64,000 bases of DNA from the sequence record PZ445521.1; one strand, 5' to 3'. Shown piece by piece: positions 3,631-58,312 of this stretch. This DNA comes from a phage. The first letter of the stretch is position 1; the number at the start of each line of letters is the position of its first letter. A model generated the notes under the pieces. It was not told where the DNA came from. It was given only the letters and a program-made list of their open reading frames with translations, and made no database searches. A program made the translations under genes and the position numbers.

Positions 3631-3831
3631 TTACCTCACATAATTTTCTTCAAGCCAATCAATAACATCTAACGCATTATCAAAAGTTGAACCATCTACT
3701 TTGTCTTCTGTTTCATAATCAAGAACATCTAAGCCTACTCTTCCATTAACAATAGGCCATAAACAAAATAAATATTTCTTTTCTTTTTCAATTTTATCAC
3801 AAAGTTGATAAATCTTTTCTATGTTATTCAT
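3631..3831 (-). CDS. hypothetical protein (cd.4 position)
   Basis: ORF track. Confidence 0.5.
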   Translation of the reverse strand: MNNIEKIYQLCDKIEKEKKYLFCLWPIVNGRVGLDVLDYETEDKVDGSTFDNALDVIDWLEENYVR

Positions 3832-4020
3832 AAGTTTTCCATGGTAAAGGCAGTTTAGTTTTCTTTACTGTTAGTTCAACATCAGGATTCTTTTCTCTTA
3901 ATTTAAGGCATTCCTCCCAAGCTCTGATTTCACTAGTGAATACACAAAATTGCCCATTACTAGTACCAACTAAACCACTATTTACAATAACAATAGACCA
4001 AGTTTCATGATGCCACGCCA

Positions 4021-4021
<1 letters not shown>
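3824..4021 (-). CDS. hypothetical protein (cd.5 position); start trimmed to internal ATG at 4021
   Basis: ORF track 3824..4051; internal Met gives TAATG junction with pseT stop. Confidence 0.45.
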
Positions 4022-5246
<1,225 letters not shown>

Positions 5247-5249
5247 TTA

Positions 5250-5474
5250 TTATTTCTCAACCAATGATTGAATATAATCATGCAGGTCTTTAGATGCTTT
5301 ACCCCACTTATTTTGGTATTCATTTTTAAGATTAGCACGTGATTGAGCTAATAAAACATCATTAGTTGGAGGTAAAGATTCTAACCGCTGAATCTGGCGT
5401 CCATAAATCATTGCAGCCATCTCGGATTCATAAATCAATCCTTTGAGATGTTCAAATTGATGCCATGAAATCAT
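5250..5474 (-). CDS. hypothetical protein
   Basis: ORF track; 4-nt overlap with next ORF. Confidence 0.5.
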   Translation of the reverse strand: MISWHQFEHLKGLIYESEMAAMIYGRQIQRLESLPPTNDVLLAQSRANLKNEYQNKWGKASKDLHDYIQSLVEK

Positions 5475-5770
5475 TTACATTTATCCTCTTTTAACTCTTG
5501 ACGATAATAACATATCATAGTTTTCTGGTCATGTACATATCGTTTTACATCATTAAGCCAAATACGAAATTCCTGGGAATCTTCAAATGGCATACCGACC
5601 CAAGCTTTACCATCGATAACTTTAACTTGCCAAGATAGTTTAGCTTCATCATATGACTTTATTTGTACAGGCCAATTAGGATGAACTGTTTCTTTCTTTA
5701 CTTCTAGAGGCTTTGTCGAACAACCAACTAGAAGACCAATAGATAATATTACTGCTGATAGTTTAATCAT
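5471..5770 (-). CDS. putative outer-membrane spanin (lipoprotein; T4 pseT.2-like)
   Basis: N-terminus MIKLSAVILSIGLLVGC has signal peptide and LVGC lipobox; adjacent to TM/coiled-coil partner. Confidence 0.6.
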   Translation of the reverse strand: MIKLSAVILSIGLLVGCSTKPLEVKKETVHPNWPVQIKSYDEAKLSWQVKVIDGKAWVGMPFEDSQEFRIWLNDVKRYVHDQKTMICYYRQELKEDKCK

Positions 5771-6120
5771 TTAGAAAGGTCCTGGATGTCTTCTGCGAAC
5801 TTGTTGAAGGAGTTGTTGATTTGTTTTTCAACCAATCCTGGCTTACGAGCCACCACATCCGCCTTCTTTGCATCTTTGCGCAGTTTTTCATTTTCACGCT
5901 CAATAGCAGCAATTGCCTCACGATTTTTATTATTCATCGCATCAATATAATTATACTGAATTCGCAAATTATTTAATGCTAAGGCGTTTTCATTGGCCGT
6001 TTTTGTAATTTCAGTAACTGATGTTTCTAATCTTTCTACCTTATTTTTTAAAATAATAGATGTTCCACCAAATACTATTACAAGTAATAGCAAACCTGCT
6101 GTCGTATTACTTAATTGCAT
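5767..6120 (-). CDS. putative inner-membrane spanin (T4 pseT.3-like)
   Basis: N-terminal TM helix (AGLLLLVIVFGG) followed by coiled-coil-like sequence; ATGA overlap with lipoprotein ORF. Confidence 0.6.
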   Translation of the reverse strand: MQLSNTTAGLLLLVIVFGGTSIILKNKVERLETSVTEITKTANENALALNNLRIQYNYIDAMNNKNREAIAAIERENEKLRKDAKKADVVARKPGLVEKQINNSFNKFAEDIQDLSK

Positions 6121-6617
6121 AAAGTTTTAATAACCTCTATAATATCGTCTTGAGAAAGACCGTTAATTAAAATATGATGTTCCGCCGGAGATTTAGAAAT
6201 TTTAAAGCATGCCGCAACATCTTCTGCCATATCCGATGCGCTACGATTTGGATTACTAATTCCAAGACGATGTTTTCCCGTTAAAGGATTAACGATAATA
6301 TAGCATTTACAGCTATTGATATGAACATTAGGTTGAGTCTGATTAATGAACACTTCACAATCATACTTAGCGAGTTGATTTTCTAAAAAGACTTTCATCT
6401 CCTCAACTGCATCAGGAAGCATATCACGGGCTTGCTCAAGACGACGATTTCGATATTCTTTAATGGTCGTTTTCCGCTTGACTTGCTTAGCTAAATCTTT
6501 CTTAAGATCGGTGATATATCCAACTCGCCGATTTCCTTTAAATACAGAAATCCCATCTGTAGTATCACCGTATGCTTCAACGACCATTTCAGTAGTAATA
6601 AGCTGCAAATCCATCAT
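6111..6617 (-). CDS. alc: Alc, transcription terminator on cytosine-containing DNA
   Basis: 167/168-aa ORF between pseT cluster and rnlA, as in T4. Confidence 0.8.
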   Translation of the reverse strand: MMDLQLITTEMVVEAYGDTTDGISVFKGNRRVGYITDLKKDLAKQVKRKTTIKEYRNRRLEQARDMLPDAVEEMKVFLENQLAKYDCEVFINQTQPNVHINSCKCYIIVNPLTGKHRLGISNPNRSASDMAEDVAACFKISKSPAEHHILINGLSQDDIIEVIKTLCN

Positions 6618-13179: not shown

Positions 13180-13224
13180 TTAGTACCTTATATAAATTAT
13201 AATACATTTTATGAAGCTAAATAA

Positions 13225-13572
13225 TCAATACGGTTTAGCATCAAATTTTCTCTCAATTTCAGGCGTGAAATATAATTCTTTACCGCGTTTGGAAAAGCGA
13301 CCAATAATATGATAATTATTCTCATCAAACGTGATATTACCAATATCCATAGCTTTCAACCAAATATCGATATTTCTATCCAACTTTATGTCAAAATTCC
13401 AATACGGAGAACTATTACCGAAAATACTGCAAGCGGATTCAGTAAAACAACTACTATAAATCTTATCTTTAGGAACTACTAATTGATAGACACCTTTAAT
13501 AAACTGAGGACCCTGCCATTTTGGTTGTTTCGTGTCTTTTTCTAATAGAATAGGGTAATAATTAAAATTCAT
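13225..13572 (-). CDS. hypothetical protein inserted between frd and td
   Basis: ORF track, 115 aa; frd and td are adjacent in T4 as I recall. Confidence 0.5.
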   Translation of the reverse strand: MNFNYYPILLEKDTKQPKWQGPQFIKGVYQLVVPKDKIYSSCFTESACSIFGNSSPYWNFDIKLDRNIDIWLKAMDIGNITFDENNYHIIGRFSKRGKELYFTPEIERKFDAKPY

Positions 13573-13591
13573 ATTTCCGCCACGCGTTATT

Positions 13592-14772: not shown

Positions 14773-15015
14773 TCAAATAGACTTTTTCACAATTTTCCAA
14801 TCAGCTTTAAACTGATCGACGTCAGAGTGATAAATCCAAAATCCTGCGCTTTCACCGTCTTCATAAAGCGGACACCCATCACATTCATCTTCCCATCCCA
14901 TGCCACGTAAAAGGTGTTCAGCTTTTTCAACAAGTTCAGAATCTTTACCGATGATATTAAAATACCATTTACCTCTAACTTCCGAATCTTTGATGCTCTG
15001 ACGTTGTAATCTCAT
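14773..15015 (-). CDS. hypothetical protein (frd-32 cluster)
   Basis: ORF track. Confidence 0.5.
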   Translation of the reverse strand: MRLQRQSIKDSEVRGKWYFNIIGKDSELVEKAEHLLRGMGWEDECDGCPLYEDGESAGFWIYHSDVDQFKADWKIVKKSI

Positions 15016-15073
15016 TTTATTCTCCTCAAGTTGATAAGGCTATAGTATCATTACCATAGCCCGTTGTAAACAA

Positions 15074-15334
15074 TTATTTTTGAATTTTATCGAGCCACTT
15101 ACCAGGCTTAATCATTTCTTTAGTAGCCTTTTCCATACTTCTGAACTTGACCAATAGAGGATAGGTATCGACACCCATAACTAAACTGGTTACAAGACTG
15201 TGTTCACCTACAAGCCATAACGAATACGTTTGAATACCGAGCCCGTAATTTCTGTCTTTATGGACCCGTACACCCATCACTTCAAATTTCTCACTAGCTT
15301 TTTCTACCGCATCCAGGAAATCATCTTTAGTCAT
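15074..15334 (-). CDS. hypothetical protein (frd-32 cluster); start trimmed to internal ATG
   Basis: ORF track 15074..15376; internal Met avoids 40-nt overlap. Confidence 0.45.
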   Translation of the reverse strand: MTKDDFLDAVEKASEKFEVMGVRVHKDRNYGLGIQTYSLWLVGEHSLVTSLVMGVDTYPLLVKFRSMEKATKEMIKPGKWLDKIQK

Positions 15335-15760: not shown

Positions 15761-16012
15761 TTATTGTTCAATCAGTCCCATGTAAAATTCTGCGTCTTCA
15801 GAATCCATGCCGTCACAATACTCATTAGCCATAAAGCGGGTGAGGTCTTCAAGAGGACCTTCAATGACAATAGAAAAATTGCAATAATTGGGATCATCGT
15901 GAATACTTGTGATACTAAGCTCAGGATAACGATTACGAATAATTTCTTCAATATATTCAAAATCAACGATGTCAATATCAACTTTAGCCATATTATTTTC
16001 CTCTTTAATCAT
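15761..16012 (-). CDS. hypothetical acidic protein (frd-32 cluster)
   Basis: ORF track; first gene downstream of the promoter at 16035..16064. Confidence 0.5.
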
Positions 16013-16034
16013 CAGCAGTATTGCCGATAGTTGT

Positions 16035-16064
16035 ATAGTACCACAGTCCTTGTGGTATGTAAAC
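16035..16064 (-). promoter_or_regulatory. T4-type early promoter (GTTTAC / TACTAT, 18-nt spacer)
   Basis: Minus strand GTTTACataccacaaggactgtggTACTAT; cassette near-identical to 37408..37458. Confidence 0.6.
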
Positions 16065-16086
16065 TGTTTTGTGAAAAAATTTTTGA

Positions 16087-16114
16087 AATAAAAAAGGGGA
16101 CCCTAGAGGTCCCC
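16087..16114 (-). terminator. rho-independent terminator downstream of gene 32
   Basis: ggggacc-ctaga-ggtcccc hairpin preceded by A-run on plus strand (U-run after hairpin on minus transcript). Confidence 0.65.
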
Positions 16115-16136: not shown

Positions 16137-17045
16137 TTAAAGGTCATTCAAAAGGTCATCCAGGTCCGTGTCATCAGCACTAGATGAACTACCAGAGCTT
16201 GAGCTCATAAAATCATCTTCAGTTTTTGTATTAAAGTCATCAACATTGAATGCATCCAAATCATCAGCAACTTTATCAGCTTTCTTAGCAGCAGTTGCAG
16301 CAGCACTGCCCATCACAGCAGTTCCCATAACTTGACCGAATTTAGTGCTCAGTTCTTCAAATGATTTGAATTTATCTTTAGAAGTCATTTCAGAAAGATC
16401 AACCATTTGTTCGAACAGTTCTTTCTGGAAAGATTCATCGTCAATGTTTGGAATCGCAGATTGATTCAGGAATTTAGATTCATCGTAGTTACTAAATCCA
16501 GAAACTTGTTTAACTTTCAGTACAAAGTTAGCACCTTCCCACGGACAAGTTACATCAACCGGAGTTTCACCCATTTCAACATCAACTGCAATCATTGCAT
16601 TGATTTTATCCCAGATTTTCTTACCGAAACGGTATTTAAATACTTTACCTTCGTTTTCTGGAGCAGCTGGGTCTTTTACTACAAGAATGTTAGCCCAGTA
16701 AGAAGTTTTACGTTTAACAAGACTGTACTCTTTATTGTCAGTGTTGTACAGATCATTTTTACTGATGTATTGACATACTGGGCAAGAATCGTAATCACCG
16801 TGGGTAGATGAGCATGTTTCGATATACCATTTACCATTTTTCTTGAAACCGTGATTTACAAGAAGTGCGAATGGTGCTTGTTCATCATTTTTAGACGGAA
16901 GAAAACGAATTACTGCTTGACCGTTACCCGCATTGTCGAGTTTCAGTTTCCACTCGCCTTTATCTTCAGAAGAAAAACCACCTTTATTTCCAGCCAGTTT
17001 AGCCATTTGTGCAGCGAGTTCAGCAGTAGATTTACGTTTAAACAT
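16137..17045 (-). CDS. 32: gp32 single-stranded DNA-binding protein
   Basis: 302-aa [53 protein letters not shown]... with acidic Ser/Asp C-tail; matches T4 gp32. Confidence 0.95.
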
Positions 17046-25725: not shown

Positions 25726-28700
25726 ATGGCTACTTTAAAACAAATACAATTTAAAAGAAGCAAAACCGCAGGTGCACGTCCTGCTGCTTCAGTATTAGCC
25801 GAAGGTGAATTGGCTATAAATTTAAAAGATAGAACAATTTTTACTAAAGACGATTCAGGAAATATCATTGACTTAAGCATTTCCGCTGGCGGTAATATCA
25901 GTGGTAATATCACTCAAACTGGTGATTATACACAGACTGGAAAATTTAATTTAATTGGCCCGCAGATTATAGCAAGTGGTGGATATATTGAGTTTAATTA
26001 TCGTACTACTGGAAGTGGGGCTTGGTCCGGTCAACACACTGCAAAGGCTCCAATTTTTGTAGATTTAAGCTCAGCTACTTCCACATCTGAATATAATCCT
26101 ATAATTAAACAGCGCTTTAAAGATGGAACTTTTTCATTAGGTACTTTAGTTTCTGAAGGTTCGTTGAAGATTCATTATATTGATGAAACTGGTCAATCTA
26201 AATATTGGACATTTGCGCGCTCAGGTAATTTTCAAGTTGATTCTGGTAATTTATTAGTATCTGGTGGGTATTTAGTCGCTCAGAGTAATATTGAAACAAG
26301 AACAGGTTCTTTGATTGGTCCATCTGTTGTAACTAAAAATATTTCATTTGATACGAAAGCGTTTGGACAATACGATTCGCAGTCATTAGTTCAATATGTT
26401 TATCCTGGAACTGGTGAAACAAACGGAATTAATTACCTTCGTAAATTCCGTGCAAAATCTGGTGGTACGATTTATCATGAATTAGCTTCTGCACAAACCG
26501 GAAAAAGTGATGAACTGTCTTGGTGGACCGGTAATACAGCCGTTAATAAACAAATGGGCCTTCGCAATGATGGGTCTTTAGTGTTGCGACGCTCACTCGC
26601 AATTGGTACAATTACAACAGATGAAAACATTAATAATTACGGCTCAACTGGAGCAATGGGTGAATGCTATATAGTCATTGGAGATGCCGCAACTGGTGTA
26701 TCATATAAAAGATCTGGTGTATATGATTTAGTTGCTAATGGTCTTTCTATCGCGTCTATTACTCCTGACAGTTTCCGTAGTACTCGTAAAGCATTATTTG
26801 GACGTTCAGAAGACCAAGGCGGAACATGGAATATGCCTGGAACGAACGCCGCGTTTTTATCGGTTCAAACACAGGCTGATGAAAACACTGCTGGAGACGG
26901 TCAAACCCATATTGGATATAACTCTGGCGGTAAAATGAACCACTATTTCCGTGGTAAAGGAAAAACTAATATTAATACTCAAGAAGGCATGGAAGTTAAC
27001 CCGGGTATTTTGAAATTGGTAACTGGCTCTAATAATGTAATGTTTTATGCTGATGGCGGTATTACATCTGTTAAGCAGCTTTCAATATATAACGGCATAT
27101 ATTTAGCAGCTAATAATTCTACTGCTGGGCTAACATTCGCTCCAACTACTACAATTGATGGCACTAAGCAAATTTTGTGGGAAGGCGGTACTCGTGCTGG
27201 TCAGAATAAAAGCTATGTAACTGTTAAAGCATGGGGTAATTCATTTAACGCATCTGGCGATCGTAATCGTGAAACGGTTTTTGAAGTAGCTGATGGACAA
27301 GGATATTATTTTTATTCACAGCGTGTGGCTCCAAGTGGCTCTGAAACTACTGGGCCTGTTGTAACCCAGTTCAATGGACAAGTTAATGCTAGAGGAAGTA
27401 TTATTACTGACGGAAGTTTTAAAGTTAATGGATTAAGCACTTTAGTCGGTAATGTTACCATGTCTAATGGTTTGTTTGTTCAAGGTGGTTCTTCTATTAC
27501 AGGCCAAGTAAAAATTGGTGGAACAGCAGATGCATTAAGAATTTGGAATGCTGAATACGGGGCTATTTTCCGTCGTTCTGAAGATAAGCTTTATATTATT
27601 CCAACTCCGCAGAATGCTGGTGAATCAGGTGGTATTTCTAATTTACGTCCGTTCTATATTACATTAAGTACTGGTAAAGTTTCCATGGATCATGATGTAG
27701 ATATCGGCGGCGGTAGATTTAAAGTAGAAGTGGCTGGAACTACGGCTGGTCAACGTATTATAGTTAATGCAGCGAGCGATGCTATTAGAATAAATGCTCC
27801 AACACAAGAGTCTTCTAACTTCATTCAAGGACGTAAGGCTGATGTGAATAAATGGTATTTGGGTATTGGCGATGGCGGCAACGTCGTTCGTATGCACAGC
27901 TACACATATTCACATGGTATTGCATTAAATTCTGATTCTGTCGATATTACTAAGCCTCTTAAAGTCGGAAACGCCCAACTAGGAACTGACGGTAATATTA
28001 CCAATGGTTCAGGAAACTTTGCCAACTTAAATACCACGTTAAATCGTAAAGTTAATTCTGGATTTATTACTTATGGAGCAACCTCTGGATGGTATAAGTT
28101 TGCAACTGTAACAATGCCACAATCCACTTCAACAGTCTTCTTTAAAATAGTTGGAGGTTCTGGATTTAATAGCGGATTATTCACACAATGTAATATTGCT
28201 GAAATTGTTTTACGTACTAGTAATGAAAGACCTGCTGACTTAAATGCTGCATTATACACAAGAACAATTGGAGCTGCATTTAAAGATATTGCAGTTAATA
28301 ACGTCTCTGGAGATACATATGACATTTATGTTTCTGCTGGAACATATTGTAATCAATTAGCTTGTGAGTGGTCATGTACCGAAAATGCTACTGTTAGTGT
28401 TATTGGTATTAACTCATCTACACAATCACCTGTAGATGCTCTTCCAGATACAGCAGTTAACGGTCAAGTTGCTAATGTTCTTAATAACTTGGTTGATCGC
28501 GGTAAAGTTAAGCGTTATGAAGCCGATTCTGAAATAGCTATTAATAGCCCAACCGGTATTCGTATCAGAAGCAATGGCGATAAAACTGGTTCTGTGGCTA
28601 CAATGTTACGAAATGATGGCGGTAGTTTTTATATTCTGTTTACAGATAAAAATGCCACCGATGGCGCAGCAACTGTTAATGGTGATTGGAATAGTAAACG

Positions 28701-33085: not shown

Positions 33086-33721
33086 TCACAGTTCAGATGC
33101 TACAGTGATTACAGCTTCAATGTTTTCTGCCGAGCGTTTAATGTCAAGATACACATTACCGTTTTTAGCGATTTTACATGACATTCCGATGTCAGTAAAT
33201 TTCTGAATATGATGTTCCATCATTTTGTATCCAAAAATTCGCATATTTCCATTGTTGTTAATTTCAAAATTACGAATTCCGTGGGTGCGTTTTTCTAAAA
33301 TAGCGAGATAGTTACTGCGGTAAGTTTCAACCTTTTTAAGAACAAATCCATTTTCATCTAAAAGTTTTAACATGAGGTCTTTATCTTCTTCCATATCAGA
33401 AGTAATCTCGCGAGCTTTACGAGTTGCTCGTTTTTTCAGTAGTTCCGGAGCATTTTCCTGTGCGTATAAAGTTGCTGCGTTTGAAATAATATCTTGCGCT
33501 TCGCCTGTGATGATTAATCCATCACCTGATTTCTCTACCAGGCCTTTTTTGATCAATACCCCAATATTACTATTAACTACTGCGTTACCTAAATCTGGAT
33601 GCACCTCACGAACTTCTGCAGCTGTAATGAAATCTTTCTTAGCAATAGTAATTAAAATCGCAGCAGTTTTTTCATTCAGAACATCGTTAGAAGCTTTGAT
33701 GATGTAAGTTACTTTAGACAT
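33086..33721 (-). CDS. motA: MotA middle-transcription activator
   Basis: 211-aa ORF MSKVTYIIKASNDVLNEKTAAILITIAKKDFITAAEVREV... matches T4 MotA. Confidence 0.9.
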   Translation of the reverse strand: MSKVTYIIKASNDVLNEKTAAILITIAKKDFITAAEVREVHPDLGNAVVNSNIGVLIKKGLVEKSGDGLIITGEAQDIISNAATLYAQENAPELLKKRATRKAREITSDMEEDKDLMLKLLDENGFVLKKVETYRSNYLAILEKRTHGIRNFEINNNGNMRIFGYKMMEHHIQKFTDIGMSCKIAKNGNVYLDIKRSAENIEAVITVASEL

Positions 33722-33762
33722 TTTCTAATCTCCGTAATTCTGTATCAGTAGTTGATAGTTGT

Positions 33763-33792
33763 ATAGTACCACAGTATGCTTTGGTTGTAAAC
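33763..33792 (-). promoter_or_regulatory. T4-type early promoter upstream of motA
   Basis: Minus strand GTTTAC-N18-TACTAT; shares the gatagttgtatagtaccaca cassette core with 16026.. and 37408.. Confidence 0.55.
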
Positions 33793-33816
33793 CGTTTTGT
33801 GAAAAAAATTTTAAAA

Positions 33817-33843
33817 TAAAAAAGGGAGAGCCTCGGCTCTCCC
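33817..33843 (-). terminator. stem-loop terminator after small ORF downstream of gene 52
   Basis: gggagagcc-tc-ggctctccc hairpin with flanking A-run on plus strand. Confidence 0.55.
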
Positions 33844-33848
33844 TAAAA

Positions 33849-33998
33849 TTACTGCATGACTGTGATAACTGTCATGATAACACGTTGAATGCCGAACGCA
33901 AGAAGACCTCCTGCTACGGCTGGAACAACACCTACCCCCGCTAGTAAAATGCCGCCAGATACTAATGCTGCGCTTGTAATACCTATAAATGGACTCAT
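33849..33998 (-). CDS. small membrane protein (49 aa), not in ORF track
   Basis: ATGA overlap with gene 52 stop; RBS GAGGAAA; MSPFIGITSAALVSGGILLAGVGVVPAVAGGLLAFGIQRVIMTVITVMQ. Confidence 0.5.
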   Translation of the reverse strand: MSPFIGITSAALVSGGILLAGVGVVPAVAGGLLAFGIQRVIMTVITVMQ

Positions 33999-36875: not shown

Positions 36876-36940
36876 TTTCTGTTCCTCCGTAGTTGATAGG
36901 GTAATAGTACCACGGAAGAACAGTCTTGTAAACAACTTTT

Positions 36941-37039: not shown

Positions 37040-37122
37040 AATAACCTCATCACAAAAGTAAATGTTAAACAAATTACTGGAATACTAATTAACCAAACAA
37101 AACACCACCATAATGAACTCAT
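37036..37122 (-). CDS. tiny membrane protein (28 aa), not in ORF track
   Basis: MSSLWWCFVWLISIPVICLTFTFVMRLL; ATGA overlap with upstream ORF stop. Confidence 0.4.
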   Translation of the reverse strand: MSSLWWCFVWLISIPVICLTFTFVMRLL

Positions 37123-37382
37123 AGTTCAATCTCAGCGATTTTCATTTCACTACTATTAATAGCCGCTTTAAGACTATCTGAAAGAATTACATTCCAGTGG
37201 TCATTCATATGACCATTAACTAAGCGTGTAATTTCTTCAGGAGTTGAAAAATAAGGCTGATCAGACTCCCAATGCGATAATCCTAAGCGAGTATAAATCA
37301 TGCCTTCATCATCGCTAGAATATTCAACTGACACAAACTCATCAGTTATTTTATGTTTAGCGTAATAAAATTTAAATTTCAT
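37119..37382 (-). CDS. hypothetical protein (87 aa); start trimmed to ATG after GGAG RBS
   Basis: Track ORF 37119..37484 reads through the promoter cassette; internal Met MKFKFYYAKHK has ggagaataaaATG context. Confidence 0.5.
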   Translation of the reverse strand: MKFKFYYAKHKITDEFVSVEYSSDDEGMIYTRLGLSHWESDQPYFSTPEEITRLVNGHMNDHWNVILSDSLKAAINSSEMKIAEIEL

Positions 37383-37416
37383 TTTATTCTCCAAATCCGT
37401 ATCAGTTGATAGTTGT

Positions 37417-37446
37417 ATAGTACCACGGTCCTTGTGGTATGTAAAC
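37417..37446 (-). promoter_or_regulatory. T4-type early promoter (GTTTAC-N18-TACTAT)
   Basis: Cassette 37408..37458 is about 50/51 identical to 16026..16076. Confidence 0.6.
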
Positions 37447-37465
37447 TGTTTTGTGAAATTTTTTT

Positions 37466-38023
37466 TTAAATGGAAAGATACCATCCGTTGTAGTTGCTTT
37501 TTCTTACAACCTTACGAAGGTCTTCTCTGTCACCGATGAACTTCGGAGTGTACTGGATGACACCTGGATGAATTTCTTTAGTGTTGAATATAATTATACA
37601 GTCAGCGACTTGATGATTTAGAATGGGCCCTAGATTTATTCCAGAACCGTATGGATACTCTCCGCTGCATCCTGTTGTTACAGAAATCCAACGTGAGTCA
37701 GTTTGGTGTGTCTTAACTTCTACACGAAGCCCGCAGTATCTTGGATGCGCCAATACATCCCATGCGTATGTATACGGGTCATTAACATCCTCTTGGCCTT
37801 TATTGACATATCCGCTTAGCCAATCTGCTACAAAAAATTCTGCGTACACAGCGATACGACATCTTTCAATAACTTCTGCTTTATCCTGGTTCGGGTTTTG
37901 TTTTAAAGAGTATCTTGCTGTATCAGCAATTTTGACCTTCATTTCACTAGTCAAGTCACTGTTCGATAGGGTAAATGTCGGAATCTGAAATAGTCTCTGT
38001 AAACCCGGATTCGTTTTCTGCAT
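37466..38023 (-). CDS. denB: endonuclease IV
   Basis: 185-aa ORF located beside rIIB as in T4. Confidence 0.8.
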   Translation of the reverse strand: MQKTNPGLQRLFQIPTFTLSNSDLTSEMKVKIADTARYSLKQNPNQDKAEVIERCRIAVYAEFFVADWLSGYVNKGQEDVNDPYTYAWDVLAHPRYCGLRVEVKTHQTDSRWISVTTGCSGEYPYGSGINLGPILNHQVADCIIIFNTKEIHPGVIQYTPKFIGDREDLRKVVRKSNYNGWYLSI

Positions 38024-38285: not shown

Positions 38286-38304
38286 AATTTTTCCTTAAAA
38301 CAAA

Positions 38305-38318
38305 AGGGCCGAAGCCCT
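38305..38318 (-). promoter_or_regulatory. C(UUCG)G intercistronic stem-loop
   Basis: agggc-cgaa-gccct (UUCG loop on minus transcript) between stop of 38324..38518 ORF and RBS of next gene. Confidence 0.55.
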
Positions 38319-38323
38319 TTATT

Positions 38324-38518
38324 TTACTTGAATTGTGCAATTCTTTTCTCTAGACATTCAGCATAAGATTTCATTGAGATGAACTGTGAAAGCAGCAGTT
38401 CTTGCTCAACTGCACTAACTGTTAGAAACTTTGCGCTTTCTAAAAATTTACTCAGTGCATTAATTTTGAGCATTAATTGATCGTATTCTTCTTTTACTCG
38501 TGCTTGATAACCTAACAT
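38324..38518 (-). CDS. hypothetical coiled-coil-like small protein
   Basis: ORF track; flanked by two identical stem-loops. Confidence 0.5.
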   Translation of the reverse strand: MLGYQARVKEEYDQLMLKINALSKFLESAKFLTVSAVEQELLLSQFISMKSYAECLEKRIAQFK

Positions 38519-38533
38519 AATTTTCCTTAGTTA

Positions 38534-38547
38534 AGGGCCGAAGCCCT
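38534..38547 (-). promoter_or_regulatory. C(UUCG)G intercistronic stem-loop after rIIB
   Basis: Second copy of agggccgaagccct immediately 3' of rIIB stop. Confidence 0.55.
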
Positions 38548-39485
38548 TATTTAAATTGTTCAGTAACGTCTTCAACTACTTCGTATTGGCAGGTACGCAT
38601 TTTAGCATCGTTGTAATCAATCGGAATTGATACTACATCACGCGGATGTACTTTAACTTTTACGACTCGGCTGGTTGAACTGCCAAAGTGACGAATATAA
38701 GATTTAGAACACACATGCAGACCACGAGAACAAGTTTGTGTATCATCGTCATTCACACGAGTACGTGGCATTTTAACTACTTTACCCGGACTGTTATCAA
38801 AGGTGTTTGAGTGACAGTCAAAGTAATTGCTGCGAACTACTTTCCAAGCATAGAAGTAACCATCTTCTGTAATTTCAATATCGTTTGCTACCAAGAAATC
38901 AAAGAGTCGAGATACCGCTTTTTGGCTTGGGTTTTCCAGCAGATTTTCCAAGAACGGAAAATAAAATTCAAAGTTTTCGCCTTTTTCCATCGAATCAAGA
39001 ATACGATCAACTAAACCAGACCGCAATTCAATATTTTGATAGAACAAGCTTCCACCTTCAATTCGAACATCGCCGGAAATATATTTTTCAACAGCGCGAC
39101 GAACATTAATTTTTTGTGCAGCTTCTTCCAGCCTATCCGCTACAAGCAGATTAAGAATTTCCTGGAAGTTTGAATGAGTATTAGGAGTTGCGTTATAAGT
39201 TACACCGTCAACAGTAATTGAAATGAATTTTTTAGATGCATTCCAAATAATGTCAGATTTAGCAACTGGAGCAATAACTGCATCGCTATTAACTTTAACT
39301 GTAATATCACCGCTAATAGTAACTTTAGAGCGTTTAGCTTCTTCAGCATTTTTCAAAACACGACGGATTGTGTCAACCGATACATCCTTCCAATAAGCTA
39401 ATTCCTGTTGGGTATAATTACCACTTGAATACAGTTTAACAATTTCAGCTTGTTCGTTTTTGGTCAGGCATTTAATATTGTACAT
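38547..39485 (-). CDS. rIIB: rIIB membrane-associated protein
   Basis: 312-aa ORF MYNIKCLTKNEQAEIVKLYSSGNYTQQELAYW.. Confidence 0.9.
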   Translation of the reverse strand: MYNIKCLTKNEQAEIVKLYSSGNYTQQELAYWKDVSVDTIRRVLKNAEEAKRSKVTISGDITVKVNSDAVIAPVAKSDIIWNASKKFISITVDGVTYNATPNTHSNFQEILNLLVADRLEEAAQKINVRRAVEKYISGDVRIEGGSLFYQNIELRSGLVDRILDSMEKGENFEFYFPFLENLLENPSQKAVSRLFDFLVANDIEITEDGYFYAWKVVRSNYFDCHSNTFDNSPGKVVKMPRTRVNDDDTQTCSRGLHVCSKSYIRHFGSSTSRVVKVKVHPRDVVSIPIDYNDAKMRTCQYEVVEDVTEQFK

Positions 39486-41888: not shown

Positions 41889-41942
41889 TTCAATATCCTC
41901 ATTTGCCCAATTAATTATACCACATCCTTGTGGTAAAGTAAA

Positions 41943-43763: not shown

Positions 43764-43813
43764 TTATCCTCGTTTGGTTTCGGGAATATTATACTCCAGT
43801 AATCATAAAGCTA

Positions 43814-43829
43814 AAGGCCCGAAGGCCTT
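43814..43829 (-). promoter_or_regulatory. C(UUCG)G stem-loop downstream of lipoprotein ORF
   Basis: aaggcc-cgaa-ggcctt immediately after stop at 43831. Confidence 0.5.
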
Positions 43830-43830
43830 T

Positions 43831-45303: not shown

Positions 45304-45573
45304 TTAATTGAACAGTGGAGCGATGCGTTTCAGAAGAGTAGCAGCACCTTTGGCAAATTTTACATCATGAAAAACAGTTTCTTCTTCCGTTACAACACGA
45401 GCTTTAATGTTTTCACAATCCCAATTTTTGCGAACAATCTTCAAAAGCTGCAGTAAATCTTTACATTCAGCAATATCAATAACACATCCACGAGAATCTT
45501 CCATTATCGCACGATAACCGTAAGCCATACCATAATCATTAAAAGATTGCTCGATGATAATTAAGTTTTCCAT
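45304..45573 (-). CDS. hypothetical protein; start trimmed to ATG (track start is TTG)
   Basis: ggagaataaaATG context identical to the 37382 start. Confidence 0.5.
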   Translation of the reverse strand: MENLIIIEQSFNDYGMAYGYRAIMEDSRGCVIDIAECKDLLQLLKIVRKNWDCENIKARVVTEEETVFHDVKFAKGAATLLKRIAPLFN

Positions 45574-45670
45574 TTTATTCTCCAAGTTATTTTCTGTATC
45601 AGTAGTTGATATTGATATAGTACCATAATCAACTACTGATGTATATAGTTTTATGAAAAAATTTTAAACT

Positions 45671-46162
45671 TTATGCATAGCGAGCTTTGCTGTAGTGTTT
45701 AATCCAACTTTCAGGAATGACTTTGTATGTTCCTAAAAATACCGCGTTGTATAACTTAACGCCATCTTCTACCCATTGATCGGTAATGTATGCACACATA
45801 GCGCGAGTACGGTTAACAACACCTTCCTCACCTTCAGTAAATTCAAACTCATAAGGAGCAACGAACTTGATAGCTTGACCGAGTTTCCACTTAAAGTCTA
45901 CACCTACATGCGAAGTATCAATCGTTTCAATTCCTTTAGCGGGAACAGCTTTCAAAAACGCAGGCTCAAGAAATTTCCATCGAACATAACCAAACTGAGG
46001 TTTAGACATTCCATCTTTAGGAATGATACGCACTTTTACTTCAGAATCTTCATCTTTAACACCATGTTTAAGCTGAATGCTTACGACTTCAACCAATTTT
46101 CCTGCTGCCTTAGAACGGGATTTATCAGATACACGAGCAATTTCACCGATATTAATATTCAT
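45671..46162 (-). CDS. motB: MotB-like protein
   Basis: 163-aa ORF in T4 motB position. Confidence 0.6.
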   Translation of the reverse strand: MNINIGEIARVSDKSRSKAAGKLVEVVSIQLKHGVKDEDSEVKVRIIPKDGMSKPQFGYVRWKFLEPAFLKAVPAKGIETIDTSHVGVDFKWKLGQAIKFVAPYEFEFTEGEEGVVNRTRAMCAYITDQWVEDGVKLYNAVFLGTYKVIPESWIKHYSKARYA

Positions 46163-47253: not shown

Positions 47254-47316
47254 TTTATTATCCTCAGTAGCTATGGTGTTATAATACCATAACTAACCGA
47301 GGAAGTAAACAACTTT

Positions 47317-48495: not shown

Positions 48496-48727
48496 ATTTA
48501 ATTAGTAATTTACAGACACTTTCATCTAGTGTAATTACCGTATCTGTATTACTGTGATATGATTGTTTTTCAATTCGTTTAATTGCTAATATAGTATCAC
48601 TTATAAGATAAAGCTTATGAAGGAGCTCAGCTCCTGTTACCATAACATCGAGATTATCTTGCTTATTAGTATGCTTCCTTATACCATCTATTAGACGATT
48701 TAAATATTTTGAATTAATGTTAATCAT
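48467..48727 (-). CDS. hypothetical small protein (paralog array member 3)
   Basis: ORF track. Confidence 0.45.
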   Translation of the reverse strand: MININSKYLNRLIDGIRKHTNKQDNLDVMVTGAELLHKLYLISDTILAIKRIEKQSYHSNTDTVITLDESVCKLLIKFEEAIRGNN

Positions 48728-48733
48728 ATAGCC

Positions 48734-50053
48734 TCACACATAAAACACATCATAACGACCACGTGTTACACCAACATAAAGAAGCTGCTGAGCTAGTTCA
48801 GCATCTGCATAATGAATACAAGGCGTATAAATGAAAGCACGGTCTACAGACATACCCTGGGCTTTATGGAATGTTGATGCAGGAAGTGCTTTCACTTTAC
48901 TAAACTGTGATTTAGCATCCCAAAAATCACTCCACGGAGCCTTTCCGCCTTTATTCCAATTTTTATAAGTTTCTGCCGTTTTACCTAAAAACAGGTTAAA
49001 CTTATATAGCTCTTCATCAGATGAAATTATTTTAATCTTTTCACGATAATATTCATCATCGCCGTAAGTTTCTACTGTTAAATCCCAATGACGAATTAAG
49101 TATTCTCCAGGAACACCACGAGCTTTAACAAACGTTGATGTATACTCTGCTTCTATAATACGAACTAATTGTCCATTATTAAAAATAATTTCTGATACCG
49201 GTTTTCCGTCAATTTTATACGTTTTAATTAACGGTTCTTGCATTACAATAATTTCACCGACAATAAAGTCTTTATCAGTTTCAAAAATCTTTTTGCGAAT
49301 AATATTGTTTAACTTATCAACAGATTTATTCGTAAATGCCATTACGCGATTTTCAAACAAATCATCTAATGATTTTACGATTGAAAAATAATTTACCATA
49401 AAATCACGTAAAGCGGTATCACCAGTAAATCCACGTACTCCATGCCCGTCAACAACTTTATCATAAATCCACTTACCGTTGCGAACATCAGTAGCTACAT
49501 CAATAATAGGAGCATTACTGCGTTTAACTTCAGTAAGTTCACACTGATAAAAATCTTTGTGTGTAAAGAATGGACTGATATAAGCAGTATTTTCTCCTGG
49601 GTCAACAGGTCTAATTTGCTTATTATCGCCTATTCCAATTATAGTACACCACGGTGGAATAGTTGAAAGCAAAATTTTGAAGAGCTTTCTATCATACATT
49701 GACACTTCGTCGCAGATTAATACCCTGCATTTAGCTAAATCTGGTACTTCCTTCTGTTCAAAAAGAACGTTTTCTTCATACGTAACTGGGTTAATTTTAA
49801 GAATACTGTGAATAGTACTCGCTTCTTTCCCTGACAGTTTTGAAAGAATCTTTTTAGCTGCATGAGTAGGAGCTGCTAAAATAATACCAGTTTCACCCGT
49901 AGATATTAAAGCTTCAATGATGAATTTTGTAAGAGTAGTCTTACCAGTACCAGCAGGTCCATTAATAGTTACATGATGTTTCTTTTCTTTAATAGCCCTC
50001 ATAACGATGTTAAAGGCATTTTTCTGGCCTTCTGTCAAATCATCAAATGTCAT
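48734..50053 (-). CDS. dda: Dda DNA helicase (SF1)
   Basis: 439-aa ORF with Walker A GPAGTGKTT; matches T4 Dda. Confidence 0.9.
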   Translation of the reverse strand: MTFDDLTEGQKNAFNIVMRAIKEKKHHVTINGPAGTGKTTLTKFIIEALISTGETGIILAAPTHAAKKILSKLSGKEASTIHSILKINPVTYEENVLFEQKEVPDLAKCRVLICDEVSMYDRKLFKILLSTIPPWCTIIGIGDNKQIRPVDPGENTAYISPFFTHKDFYQCELTEVKRSNAPIIDVATDVRNGKWIYDKVVDGHGVRGFTGDTALRDFMVNYFSIVKSLDDLFENRVMAFTNKSVDKLNNIIRKKIFETDKDFIVGEIIVMQEPLIKTYKIDGKPVSEIIFNNGQLVRIIEAEYTSTFVKARGVPGEYLIRHWDLTVETYGDDEYYREKIKIISSDEELYKFNLFLGKTAETYKNWNKGGKAPWSDFWDAKSQFSKVKALPASTFHKAQGMSVDRAFIYTPCIHYADAELAQQLLYVGVTRGRYDVFYV

Positions 50054-50361
50054 CGGAAAGTCCCTGCAATTGGAATACTAACAATACGCCCAGTATCTAG
50101 AATTCGTTGATATAATCTTTGTGTATCTACATCAGGCTTAACATGTTTAACTTCTATTTTATTAAACCAAAACTTGCGTGGAGTCTCAACTAGTCTTGGA
50201 ATTCCCATACCTAAAGCTAGTTTATATTGGTCTTTGAGAGTAGTAAAAACTCTATCAGCAATCTCTCTTTCAAAAAACACAGCAGGACGATGTTCATCAA
50301 GTGGAACTGGCGCCGTAAATCCGTCTTTGTCTCGGTAAACTATCGCGTATACATAAACCAT
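50050..50361 (-). CDS. hypothetical protein (dda.1 position)
   Basis: ORF track; ATGA overlap with dda. Confidence 0.5.
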   Translation of the reverse strand: MVYVYAIVYRDKDGFTAPVPLDEHRPAVFFEREIADRVFTTLKDQYKLALGMGIPRLVETPRKFWFNKIEVKHVKPDVDTQRLYQRILDTGRIVSIPIAGTFR

Positions 50362-50362
50362 A

Positions 50363-51109
50363 TTATCCTCGGATAAGTTTAAACATTGAACAATTTAGCG
50401 GGTATCCTCTTTTCAGTTTAAGTTTATCAATAAAAGACAAATTTTGATACCGCTCTACACCTTGAATAATTTTATCACACATATCATATTGCATTTCTGC
50501 TTCTGACAGCTTTTTCACAATTTTCCAATCCGAGCCTTTAAGAAGAACGTTCAATTTAACAACTTCAGCGCCTTCTGCTATGCGAGAACCATCAATACGT
50601 GCTTTAAGTGCTATAATCCTTAGCTTAATGTCAGAGGTCTGTTTTGATTTAGAAAGCTGAGAAATGTGTTCAATTCGGTTTTCACGTTTTTTCTGTATAG
50701 CTTTAATTTGATTATAAGTCTTTTTGATTTTAGCCCATTTCTTTTCATCTAAATTTAGTTTATGAACTTTTTTCGCAGATGAACGACCAATTCGCAAAGC
50801 AAACAAATCACGTTTTTCAATTAACTCCTCTAAAGTATAATCAGAACGAAATGTATTATACTTTTTCTTTACTGCAATAACATTCCCTTTAATGTATCCA
50901 ATGTTATTATCAAAACGTTCTAATGATAATTTCTCTCCTTCAATACGATTATCAAAAGGTTCTCCTGAATAGGCACAAACTTTTTGATCTAAAATATTCT
51001 TAATGTAATTGAAGTCTAAGTTAAAATCTTTAGAACGTCTTTTTGCAGATGCCTGAGTGTGCTCTAAACGACGTTTAATTTTACGAATTTGATTATTAGA
51101 CAGTTTCAT
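50363..51109 (-). CDS. srd: possible Srd homolog
   Basis: 248-aa basic ORF in the T4 srd position; synteny and size only. Confidence 0.45.
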   Translation of the reverse strand: MKLSNNQIRKIKRRLEHTQASAKRRSKDFNLDFNYIKNILDQKVCAYSGEPFDNRIEGEKLSLERFDNNIGYIKGNVIAVKKKYNTFRSDYTLEELIEKRDLFALRIGRSSAKKVHKLNLDEKKWAKIKKTYNQIKAIQKKRENRIEHISQLSKSKQTSDIKLRIIALKARIDGSRIAEGAEVVKLNVLLKGSDWKIVKKLSEAEMQYDMCDKIIQGVERYQNLSFIDKLKLKRGYPLNCSMFKLIRG

Positions 51110-51229
51110 ATTTTCTCACATCTTACGGACGATTGACTACTATATTATAACATTTTTACCTTGGCTTGTAAACAATTTTATGAAAAATGCTTCAAAAATT
51201 TCATGGTATAATGAATCTAAGTCCTTCCG

Positions 51230-51832
51230 TTATAGATTAAATCCTTCAAAATCAAGAGTATAGATAGTATATGTTGAATACTTTTTATACTCATATCTAT
51301 CTGCAATTCTAAATACACTTCCAGCTGGTATCATTACTTCTTGTTCATCTGAAACTAATTCCATATTACGATAACGATGGCTATCCGGAAACTTAAAGTT
51401 TGGATTGTATTCTTTACAGCGTAGAGCTTTTATAGCATACTCCTGGAAATTGAATACCATAGGAGCTTTGAATTCAAAAATAACTTGTGTGTTATACTCT
51501 AAACCAGAAGCAAAATGTAGAGCTATATTTTTATCATATGAAGCTGATACTACTTTATCAAATGTAATAATATCAATTCCTTGATTTAACACCTGCTTAG
51601 TCTCAGCTGGAACACCTCTCCAAAGAGGTTTATCGTTTGGAACCAAACGAGATTTGATTATTTCATTTAACCAAGAATGATCGTCTGGTTTATTAGTAAT
51701 ACAATGAATTAAAAGTTCAATTTCAGATAAATTAAACCCTTCAGAAAGTAATTCTTCACGAATAGAAGCACGCACCGATGCATCCATTGATTTTATTTTA
51801 AAATCTTTTAGTTGCATTACTGAGTATTTCAT
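51230..51832 (-). CDS. modA: ADP-ribosyltransferase ModA
   Basis: 200-aa ORF with R...S-x-S/T...EQE ART motif (EQEVMIPAG). Confidence 0.7.
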   Translation of the reverse strand: MKYSVMQLKDFKIKSMDASVRASIREELLSEGFNLSEIELLIHCITNKPDDHSWLNEIIKSRLVPNDKPLWRGVPAETKQVLNQGIDIITFDKVVSASYDKNIALHFASGLEYNTQVIFEFKAPMVFNFQEYAIKALRCKEYNPNFKFPDSHRYRNMELVSDEQEVMIPAGSVFRIADRYEYKKYSTYTIYTLDFEGFNL

Positions 51833-52452
51833 TCAACTACCTCAATATCATAAACTTTAAATGTTCCAAATGAATCGTGTAATTTTTCTTTTGAAATAGA
51901 AGTTATTCTATACTTTCCAATTGGAATCATCCATTCTTGTTCACGCACAATCATCATTAAGTTATCAGTACGCTCTGAATCTAGCCCATCAGTATCTTCA
52001 TACGTGTACTTAAACTCAGTATTAGGAGAAGAAAGTATAATATCGCTGATATGGTCAGAATAATTAAAAGCTTTATTAGTTTTTAAGCGAAGTATTATTT
52101 TAGTAAAATATTCAGCGTAAGAAAAAGAACATGCTGTGAGCAAACTAGTAGTAAATGAATCTACTCTATTCGTTGAAAACACTTCTCCAACTTGTAAATC
52201 TTTAATAAGTTCTTCTGTTGATTTTGATATACCACGATATAACTGATAAGGTGATTTAGTTAAATGCTTTTTAATGATTTTATTCAACTGCCGATGAAGA
52301 GCTTCATTCTTTTTGGCTTCCATACATTGCCAAAGAACTGACTGCTCAAAGTCAGTAAATTTTTCACAGACCTTTTTATACATATCATATTGAAAATCGA
52401 CGCTTTCAGCTTTTATAGATAACTGTTCAACATCTGCAAGATTAATAATCAT
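51829..52452 (-). CDS. modB: ADP-ribosyltransferase ModB
   Basis: 207-aa ORF with EQE motif (REQEWMIPIG); ATGA overlap with modA. Confidence 0.7.
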   Translation of the reverse strand: MIINLADVEQLSIKAESVDFQYDMYKKVCEKFTDFEQSVLWQCMEAKKNEALHRQLNKIIKKHLTKSPYQLYRGISKSTEELIKDLQVGEVFSTNRVDSFTTSLLTACSFSYAEYFTKIILRLKTNKAFNYSDHISDIILSSPNTEFKYTYEDTDGLDSERTDNLMMIVREQEWMIPIGKYRITSISKEKLHDSFGTFKVYDIEVVE

Positions 52453-52519
52453 GATAGCCTCCGTATACTTCAGAAGCTATCATATCATCGTTAGAAAGGA
52501 AAGTAAACAACTTTTTGAA

Positions 52520-52702
52520 TTATTTTGCCCAGGGAGCCCAGGGCGGAGGGTCAAGATGGTATGAAGCTAGTTCTTCTAGAAGAGCATCTGGGGCTTCAAT
52601 TCCATAATTCTGTAATACTATACGGTACTCTTTCTTATAATCACTGGAATCATTCTGGTTATTCGTAGAATGATTATCTTCTAACATCTCAAATAAATCC
52701 AT
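52520..52702 (-). CDS. hypothetical small acidic protein
   Basis: ORF track. Confidence 0.45.
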   Translation of the reverse strand: MDLFEMLEDNHSTNNQNDSSDYKKEYRIVLQNYGIEAPDALLEELASYHLDPPPWAPWAK

Positions 52703-52710
52703 ATTAATTC

Positions 52711-53181
52711 CTAGCGATAAAAACCAAATTGACGATTAGCTTCAATAATCTTTCTTTCTTCTTCGGACATTCTCCAGCGTAGTCCAACGTCAAAATGAGC
52801 CCAGACCATCTTAACAAATGCATTTATATCTTTAATATCTTCAATAATGAATGTTTTACTTTTAAAAGGCTGACTCGCTAATTTAACTTTATCATCTTCA
52901 AACAGGTCAAAAAGACCATATTCATGAGCTCTTTTATAGCCTTTAATAGTTAAAGCTTCAGAAGAAGAAAATGGTGAATCTGTATTCTGCAAAATATCTT
53001 CAGTATGCTTTATAATTAGAATAATATTTTCTGGATATTTTCTTTCTTTTATATCTTTAATTAAAATATCCGGATTTTCTGCTAAAGGAATAATTAATGA
53101 GCATTTTTTATCAAGTGTATTTACTGATTTACCTTCTTTAGACATAAATTCTATTGAATAATGTTTTGCTACTTCAATCAT
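52711..53181 (-). CDS. hypothetical protein
   Basis: ORF track, 156 aa. Confidence 0.5.
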
Positions 53182-53334
53182 GGGATTTCCTTTTGCCTAC
53201 TAATGGACCATCGGGAATTTTGTTTTCCTGGATATATTTCTCATTTTCTTCCATCATTTTACTGCCAATTTTAAGAAGCAAATCCAGTGCTTCATTTGCT
53301 TTAGCTTTAGCCTCTTCCAGCGTCATATCTTTGT

Positions 53335-53538
53335 TCACGATTTATCCCCATAGATGTCTCTCATCAATTTAAGCGCTGAGCGTTCTAATTTCTTTTCTTT
53401 CTCAGCACTAATCATTGATTTCATCCATTCTTCCGATTCGTTCTGCATTTCTTTATTTGCTTGTTCAACCCAACCATCATCAATGTACATTGAGTTTGGT
53501 CTATTGAACCATTCAAGAATCTTCTTGAGAGCTTTCAT
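53335..53538 (-). CDS. hypothetical small protein
   Basis: ORF track. Confidence 0.45.
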
Positions 53539-54554: not shown

Positions 54555-54620
54555 AGTGCTCTCCTCTATAAGATAATTCTATTATACCATACTCATTTTG
54601 GAAAGTAAACCGTTTAAATG

Positions 54621-54647
54621 AAAAAAAAAGGACTCCCGAAGGAGTCC
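54621..54647 (-). terminator. C(UUCG)G stem-loop terminator downstream of soc
   Basis: Same 18-nt hairpin ggactcccgaaggagtcc as at 317..334, preceded by A9. Confidence 0.6.
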
Positions 54648-54653
54648 TTGAAT

Positions 54654-58252: not shown

Positions 58253-58312
58253 GATAATCTCCTCAGTAGTTTATGTTTATATAGTATCTCAATTTCCAAC
58301 AAAAGTAAACAG

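Follow-up and report, generated by a model that had tools for sequence, protein, structure and literature searches.

Dispersed early-promoter cassettes in a Tequatrovirus early region: regulatory repeats with probable ectopic exchange

Miller et al. reportedly annotated in 2003 the early promoters (Pe) and intrinsic terminators of T4, among them the terminator of gene 32 and the early promoter of motA, and Repoila et al. (as cited in PMC2839356 and PMC4122927) are said to have found in 1994 that conserved sequences flank the variable internal-protein (IP) loci of T-even phages. The T4 early promoters are of the UP/-35/TGn/-10 type with an extra, unusually long consensus (PMC2988021). Promoter-early stem-loops (PeSLs) have been described in the T4-type phages RB49/phi1 (Arbiol 2010, PMC2839356), as well as in T4/PST and KVP40/nt-1 (Comeau 2014, PMC4122927). 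In the sections of these two papers on which we draw, the stem-loops are placed upstream of the promoter, inside it or overlapping it (PMC2839356), and the ndd/denB region serves as an example of PeSL exchange (Fig. 6A of PMC4122927).

The window (the whole stretch of 64,000 nucleotides analysed here) is 100% identical to Shigella phage JK38 (MK962755.1, Tequatrovirus) and spans from gene 30.8 through the tail-fibre genes and the rIIB/rIIA origin to imm.1. Its minus strand carries all early and middle genes; since the early genes all lie on this strand, the cassettes are to be read as the reverse complement. An Rfam search of the window gave no matches. In gene 37, a 730-bp stretch (27701-28430) present once in the window occurs twice in tandem in MK962755.1, which annotates two gp37 CDSs; either the record contains an assembly artefact, or the window stems from a corrected or collapsed version. 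The window was aligned with the homologous 70 kb of T4, RB7, G28, G4507, RB32 and D5505, and the alignments were chained. Several-kb chain gaps in G28, RB32 and D5505 (for example 3669-6474 and 48502-53475) represent divergent blocks and were excluded from the event count. The elements with which the argument is concerned are these:

16096..16114, minus strand: gene 32 terminator hairpin, 3' of gene 32 (ssb, 16137-17045); GGGGACC-UCUAG-GGUCCCC, U6 at 16090-16095
16026..16089, minus strand: frd.3 early promoter cassette with TTTCACAAAAC (16066-16076), -35 TTTACA (16058-16063), type-A spacer (16041-16057), TGG plus -10 TACTAT (16035-16040) and leader start ACAACTATC (16026-16034); spacer different from the T4, RB7 and G28 orthologue, flanks conserved
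15989..16025, minus strand: frd.3 locus-specific leader, SD (AAGAGG) and ATG (CDS 15761-15991)
33824..33843, minus strand: motA.1 terminator hairpin, 3' of motA.1 (33849-33998), followed by U6
33738..33823, minus strand: motA early promoter cassette with -35 (33786-33791), type-B spacer, -10 (33763-33768) and leader ACAACTATCAACTACTGATACAG
33719-33721, minus strand: motA ATG
37404..37458, minus strand: denB-downstream cassette between denB (37466-37942) and an 87-aa ORF (37119-37382), with -35 (37440-37445), type-A spacer and -10 (37417-37422)
37380..37403, minus strand: common leader plus GGAGAATAAAATG, the junction joining alternative small genes in relatives
45592..45658, minus strand: degenerate copy between motB (45671-46162) and an 89-aa ORF (45304-45573), with UP TTTCATAAAA (45649-45658), -35-like TATACA (45640-45645) and -10 TACTAT (45617-45622)
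45628-45639 and 45599-45610, minus strand: 12-bp inverted-repeat arms of the degenerate copy, embracing the -10; fold of -18.9 kcal/mol, z -7.8
45571..45583, minus strand: GGAGAATAAAATG start context of the ORF beginning at 45573
36886..36932, minus strand: early promoter upstream of ndd.4, family D2, with type-E spacer and CTATCAACTAC leader; 513 bp downstream of the 37408 copy, in direct orientation
41914..41942, minus strand: early promoter whose spacer has ACCACAAGGA-TGTGG in common with type-A cassettes
54572..54648, minus strand: composite of terminator (54624-54648) and early promoter (54581-54609), downstream of soc
15013..15070, minus strand: frd.1 early promoter plus GGAGAATAAAATG, with the right-hand junction in the leader

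The first-pass annotation had described an early-promoter cassette occurring almost identically at 16026..16076 and 37408..37458, with partial copies at about 33745..33805 and 45590..45640. Alignment bears this out. The near-identical pair agrees at 50 of 51 bases (repeat family D1) and reads TTTCACAAAACAG-TTTACA-TACCACAAGGAC[T/C]GTGG-TACTAT-ACAACTATC on the minus strand, and the partial copies extend over 33738-33826 and 45592-45658. Among these, 16058-16098 and 33786-33826 are identical at 38 of 41 positions (UP element and U-tract), 33750-33772 and 37404-37426 at 23 of 23, and 33738-33771 and 45592-45625 at 31 of 34. As the four named copies supply four of the five most similar pairs among the 171 formed by the 19 early promoters of the window, they constitute a sub-family inside the general early-promoter consensus; five of their six mutual pairs rank in the top 12, and identity over 79 nt is 0.54-0.78 for these pairs compared with 0.46 (median) and 0.57 (95th percentile) for all pairs. 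For the spacers of 16035 and 37417, identity reaches 0.93, the median among early promoters being 0.29. Further relatives of the family are found at 36886-36932, 41914-41942, 54572-54648 and 58263-58309. All copies are co-oriented on the minus strand and the plus strand has none, which corrects the earlier reading, as does the degenerate -35 (TATACA) of the 45590 copy. The start context said to be common to the ORFs beginning at 37382 and 45573 is present before both of them: it is GGAGAATAAAATG, which has four exact matches in the window (227, 15013, 37380 and 45571, all on the minus strand; chance expectation 0.25), each directly downstream of an early promoter. The terminators named beside the copies, 16096-16114 and 33824-33843, are borne out, and only these two of the four copies have a GC-rich terminator; the 37408 copy has a weak hairpin of -4.2 kcal/mol and the 45590 copy none.

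In their organization, the four named copies belong to the approximately 19 T4-type early promoters that follow the pattern TTTACW-N17-TAYWAT. A generic sigma70 scan of the AT-rich window returned 82 sites against 81.6 expected, and since it was thus uninformative, the T4-specific pattern was used; it matched 32 times, almost exclusively on the minus strand, compared with 10.7 +/- 3.0 expected (about threefold), and none of 100 shuffles reached 32. Exact matches occur at 16035, 33763 and 37417, with one mismatch at 45617, and about 19 of the pattern sites have an SD and an ATG within approximately 40 nt downstream. On the minus strand the cassette runs from an A/T-rich tract ending in TTTCACAAAAC through -35 TTTACA, a 17-nt spacer ending in TGG and -10 TACTAT to a leader beginning with ACAACTATC, followed by SD and ATG; AAAAATTTTTTCACAAAAC or a similar A/T-rich sequence stands upstream of all four copies. 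The genes downstream are frd.3 (product of 76 aa), motA (a known core regulator, not an ORFan), the 87-aa ORF after denB and the 89-aa ORF after motB. Their proteins are unrelated to one another, which rules out gene duplication as the source of the repeats and identifies these as non-coding regulatory cassettes. The frd.3 copy follows the gene 32 terminator and the motA copy the motA.1 terminator. The former folds with -15.2 kcal/mol (z -2.4) and the latter with -17.9 kcal/mol (z -4.9, the top match of the terminator scan), both with a U6 tail, and the orthologous sites of both are annotated as terminators in G28, G4507 and D5505. T4 has orthologous sequences for the cassettes at 16026, 33745, 37408 and 45590, located respectively in front of frd.3, motA, ndd.6 and cef, and other groups have annotated the orthologous sites as terminator and promoter.

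Most early promoters are near-invariant among JK38, T4, RB7 and G28. Only the frd.3 promoter departs from this: between conserved flanks, its spacer is wholly different in JK38, T4 and RB7/G28. A metagenome scan for the cassette core, combined with the fetched genomes, yielded 57 distinct instances at at least nine loci as defined by the downstream gene; an IMG/VR scan for the frd.3 cassette itself returned only three loci. Over 15 phages and contigs, the frd.3 spacer is of type A in three (JK38 and two contigs), type B in two contigs, type C in one (T4) and type D in nine. Nearly everywhere else the spacer types are locus-specific, with type A in 12 of 12 cases downstream of denB, type B in 10 of 10 at motA and type E at ndd.4; two other small-ORF loci have types C and D as their resident spacers. 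Every frd.3 spacer type has an exact or nearly exact match in the spacer resident at a different promoter locus. In JK38, frd.3 has the version of the denB-downstream locus, 21.4 kb away, and the two promoters also have the -37 'A' variant in common. Because the identical 17-mers occupy non-consensus positions, convergence is impossible; together with the locus-specific flanks, the same 17-mers are what marks patchy ectopic gene conversion between the limits set by common promoter elements, with the denB-downstream promoter as the likely donor type of the JK38 frd.3 spacer. With its four alternating spacers, frd.3 offers a clean case from nature in which regulatory elements have undergone ectopic gene conversion. 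Over the 145-bp 32-frd.3 spacer region, roughly 50 of 498 phage records are at least 95% identical to JK38, which is consistent with several alleles at the site. In term searches of PMC2839356 and PMC4122927, neither 'gene conversion' nor 'conversion' occurred, and spacer swapping was not found there.

The 3' ends of the cassettes vary in another manner. The denB locus occurs in four arrangements, depending on whether a 207-nt gene and a 264-nt gene are present, all of them joined at the common leader/SD-ATG; the junctions lie in two similar SD contexts, GGATTTGGAGAATAAAATG and GGATTATTGAGTAAAATG, and G4507 has a hybrid SD, which points to putative exchange by short homology in the 3' portion of the cassette. 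Between the motA cassette and motA, D5505, OBRH and Ga0129313 have a 228-nt gene bracketed by two promoters with a common 23-nt leader repeat, a textbook case of the PeSL arrangement. Clean excision between two D5505-like motA promoters was rejected: the JK38 leader is not reproduced by simple deletion, and the difference between JK38 and D5505 is therefore a replacement. At frd.1, a promoter and the upstream ORF (15074-15334) replace the non-orthologous promoter of T4, RB7 and G28, with the junction inside the promoter leader. Beyond the window end, a further cassette with a type-E spacer, the same leader and GGAGAAT(A/G)AAATG is located between gene 43 and imm.1 (about 24.7-24.9 kb in the JK38 record; L007 24434, L009 26536); it is present in RB7, G28, G4507, D5505 and RB32 with alternative small membrane-protein genes attached (MKIAILVI... 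or MKIVMGCL...).

Taking these observations jointly, we propose that the cassettes are early promoters, regulatory in the first place, with ectopic recombination as a by-product, and we assign this reading a probability of about 0.8. They would be host-sigma70-dependent early promoters, two of them fused to the intrinsic terminator of the preceding unit, and their predicted primary job is to switch on the frd.3, motA and small-ORF units as soon as infection has begun and to insulate neighbouring units. As near-identical direct repeats of 50-100 bp meet very active homologous recombination, ectopic recombination would follow as a by-product: the comparisons show patchy gene conversion that swaps the 17-nt spacer among promoter loci, as well as alternative small genes attached to one promoter-leader-SD-ATG unit. 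We further infer that cassette recombination could be a major driver of accessory-gene gain and loss and could proceed via excised mini-circles, as proposed for PeSLs.

The first-pass annotation had gone further and had matched the repeats to mobile promoter-stem-loop cassettes that shuffle accessory genes, expecting indels in related phages to be bounded by them. In the six relatives we counted 34 distinct events, 30 of them in the first four; 8 concern introns or seg/mob endonucleases and 26 are of other kinds. The 8 intron/endonuclease events (8796, 9472, 12627, 17105, 42278, 54937, 61756 and 62690) all lie outside the cassettes, which speaks against homing-endonuclease-mediated mobility of these. 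Eight of the 26 other events have a boundary in a cassette span with 45-bp padding and nine with 60-bp padding. Cassette spans make up 4.2% of early-region bases, and a cassette is found at 18 of 103 gene junctions; under a null of random gene junctions, 7.3 +/- 2.3 matches are expected (P = 0.28-0.44). The coincidence of cassettes and indels is therefore real and does not exceed what is expected for events confined to junctions, so that the anticipated bounding of indels by cassettes shows no clear enrichment.

Six of the 19 promoters have an indel next to them, three of the four named copies being among these. The cassette-adjacent events include the P3319 insertion, the replacement of promoter plus gene at frd.1, the two small denB-locus genes, the D5505 motA-cassette insertion, ORF 45304-45573 and motB around the 45590 copy, and two events at P58281. 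Indels or replacements abut the 37408 cassette in T4, RB7, G28 and RB32, the 45590 cassette in T4, RB7, RB32 and D5505, and the 33745 cassette in D5505 and two metagenome contigs; as the metagenome sample was selected by way of the cassette, it documents the occurrence of these events and gives no information on their frequency. The anchor cassette 16026-16114 has no adjoining gene indel in the six genomes. Of the shuffling proposal, what stands is that the cassettes recombine (spacers and swaps of 3' ends) and that indels abut three of the four copies; it does not extend to the anchor. No relic flanking cassettes were seen at the junctions read base by base, which are those of the denB and frd.1 loci. 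Several junctions fall in the SD-ATG/leader part or at overlaps of 5-20 bp rather than in the promoter, which fits short-homology or illegitimate recombination better than promoter-to-promoter exchange.

Such junctions lend weight to a rival explanation, according to which gene turnover proceeds mainly by homing endonucleases and introns together with short-homology or illegitimate recombination, and cassette exchange only homogenizes or scrambles promoters. We consider this almost as probable as not. It accounts for the 8 intron/seg/mob events without a cassette (of 30, or of 34 with RB32 and D5505), for the many junctions that overlap by -5 to -23 bp, for the two similar SD contexts at the denB junctions, for the 9-bp flanking repeat in RB32 at the orthologue of the 13225-13572 gene and for the remnant of ORF 45304-45573 that T4 keeps after a 200-bp internal deletion. 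However, the SD-ATG context itself belongs to the repeated cassette, the gene inserted at the motA cassette has two promoters with a 23-nt repeat and hence the classical PeSL signature, and the frd.1 junction is inside a promoter leader; for these reasons the rival overlaps with our main explanation and does not exclude it.

Two variable stretches deserve mention here. Within the region 13182-13587, T4 and G28 lack ORF 13225-13572, and in D5505 another sequence takes its place; in the RB32 annotation the orthologue of the ORF is 'flanked by 9 bp repeat', and at the empty site there is a 12-bp overlap of the alignments. It is a case of short-repeat-mediated gain or loss without a nearby promoter. 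The unusually long rIII-30.9 intergenic region (516-806, 289 bp), which holds an early-promoter-like site with one mismatch at 675-703, lacks 168 bp in RB32, and in D5505 a stretch of 150 bp stands in place of 41 bp.

Selection for maximal early-promoter strength alone, acting on the extended consensus and the leader/SD (for example early-processed GGAG sites), would assign the repeats no role in recombination, and their nearness to indels would be incidental, both being confined to gene junctions. The unusually long T4 early-promoter consensus (PMC2988021), the high conservation of the promoters between phages and the finding that cassette-adjacent indels are no commoner than under the junction null are all in line with this explanation. 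Yet the 17-nt spacers are not consensus positions (median identity 0.29), and paralogous loci have identical spacers whereas orthologous frd.3 promoters are wholly different. Moreover, three to four different genes stand on the same leader and ATG at one locus, denB. We therefore regard strength selection alone as unlikely.

The hairpins of the early promoters raise the question of a structural contribution to the exchange. An upstream terminator hairpin is found at only 4 of the approximately 19 early promoters in the window. In most of them, an inverted repeat is located within the spacer or encloses the -10, and folds with z < -1.5 occur at 13 of 19 (mean z -2.74 versus -0.32 for controls, P = 1.3e-4), the fold of the 37408 copy being weak (z -1.4). 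The arms of the -10-embracing repeats lie in the spacer and in the first transcribed bases (for example at 47281, 45617, 58784, 3319, 6646, 46207 and 15042); since the upstream arm is not transcribed, a structure embracing the -10 could form only at the level of DNA. In the 45590 copy, the spacer sequence TCAGTAGTTGAT is the exact reverse complement of ATCAACTACTGA in the leader, and the type-A spacer of the 16026 and 37408 copies holds a CCACA...TGTGG palindrome that forms an in-spacer hairpin. These inverted repeats might act as DNA-level hairpins or cruciforms that make the promoters self-targeting hotspots of ectopic conversion, an idea we hold to be improbable. Extruded hairpins would be cut, for instance by the phage junction-resolving endonuclease VII, or would provoke template switching, and the breaks would be repaired from paralogous promoters, turning the spacer into a discrete, often exchanged module. 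If true, this would account for the exact coincidence of the converted frd.3 tract with the hairpin-forming spacer, as well as for the flips of the terminator loops.

These loops vary on identical stems: that of the gene 32 terminator reads UCUAG in JK38, G4507 and OIWM and CUAGA in T4 and RB7, and that of the motA.1 terminator reads CGAG in JK38 and T4 and CUCG in G28 and Ga0129313. The inversions suggest recurrent hairpin-mediated flips that may take place at the DNA level. Elsewhere in the window, an identical 25-nt terminator, AGGACTCCTTCGGGAGTCCTTTTTT, is found at 311-335 and 54624-54648 on the minus strand, 54 kb apart, in each case immediately 5' of an early promoter (257-285 and 54581-54609). 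The denB.1 gene (38324-38518) is bracketed by nearly the same hairpin, (A/T)AAGGGCCGAAGCCCTT(T/A), at 38303-38320 and 38532-38549; both are of the GGGC...GCCC type (family D15) and are annotated as terminators in G28, and a similar hairpin is present at 43813-43830.

That the cassettes are autonomous MITE-like or integron-cassette-like elements moved by a dedicated enzyme is highly improbable, even though hairpins lie in or beside them and a hairpin-binding helper protein is speculated upon in the portion of Arbiol et al. (PMC2839356) considered here: the co-orientation of all copies with transcription, with none on the plus strand, and the missing terminal repeats led us to reject a MITE-like element, as homology fades into locus-specific sequence, the alignments are devoid of terminal inverted repeats or target duplications, the exchanged tracts are internal patches between shared promoter elements, as homologous conversion predicts, and no recombinase is associated with the cassettes.

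The phenomenon is thus one already known as PeSL, ordinary in kind and with a clear gene-conversion signal, to which the frd.3 spacer-swap pattern and the -10-embracing palindromes are modest additions. Another Tequatrovirus confirms that the early promoter/terminator cassettes are the largest dispersed repeat family of the early regions and that sequence is exchanged among them; the JK38 results leave the present picture of T4-type genomes as it was. As the junction-null test cautions, the statement that PeSLs sit near indels is weak evidence when taken alone, since promoters are restricted to gene junctions just as indels are.

Compared with the PeSLs as depicted in the parts of the two reports used here, the JK38 cassettes present the same composite of A/T-rich region, sigma70-like early promoter, stem-loop and SD/ATG of a small gene, likewise repeated in direct orientation through early 'hyperplastic' regions. 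They match the T4/PST consensus TTTACW-N17-TAYWAT exactly (PMC4122927), and the gene between two cassettes recurs at the D5505 motA locus. The PeSL features found here thus include the promoter consensus, the A/T-rich tract, the stem-loop, the 3' SD/ATG and chimeric cassettes (the frd.3 spacers and the hybrid SD of G4507). Set against those same parts of the reports, two differences emerge: the JK38 stem-loops are mostly inverted repeats embracing the -10 (13 of 19), with an upstream terminator at 4 of about 19, and indel boundaries over the six relatives are not enriched at cassettes relative to the gene-junction null. With the annotated T4 early promoters (PMC2988021), the cassettes have the UP/-35/TGn/-10 architecture in common, whereas the JK38 frd.3 spacer is of type A instead of type C and the gene 32 terminator loop is inverted relative to T4. 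At the IP loci of T-even phages, which are different loci, short conserved regulatory sequences reportedly bracket alternative small genes much as they do downstream of denB. Integron attC/gene cassettes likewise are small promoter-less or promoter-adjacent gene modules exchanged at hairpin-forming sites; unlike these, the JK38 cassettes are promoters and not enzyme-recognized recombination sites, an integrase is absent, and the exchange looks like ordinary homologous or short-homology recombination.
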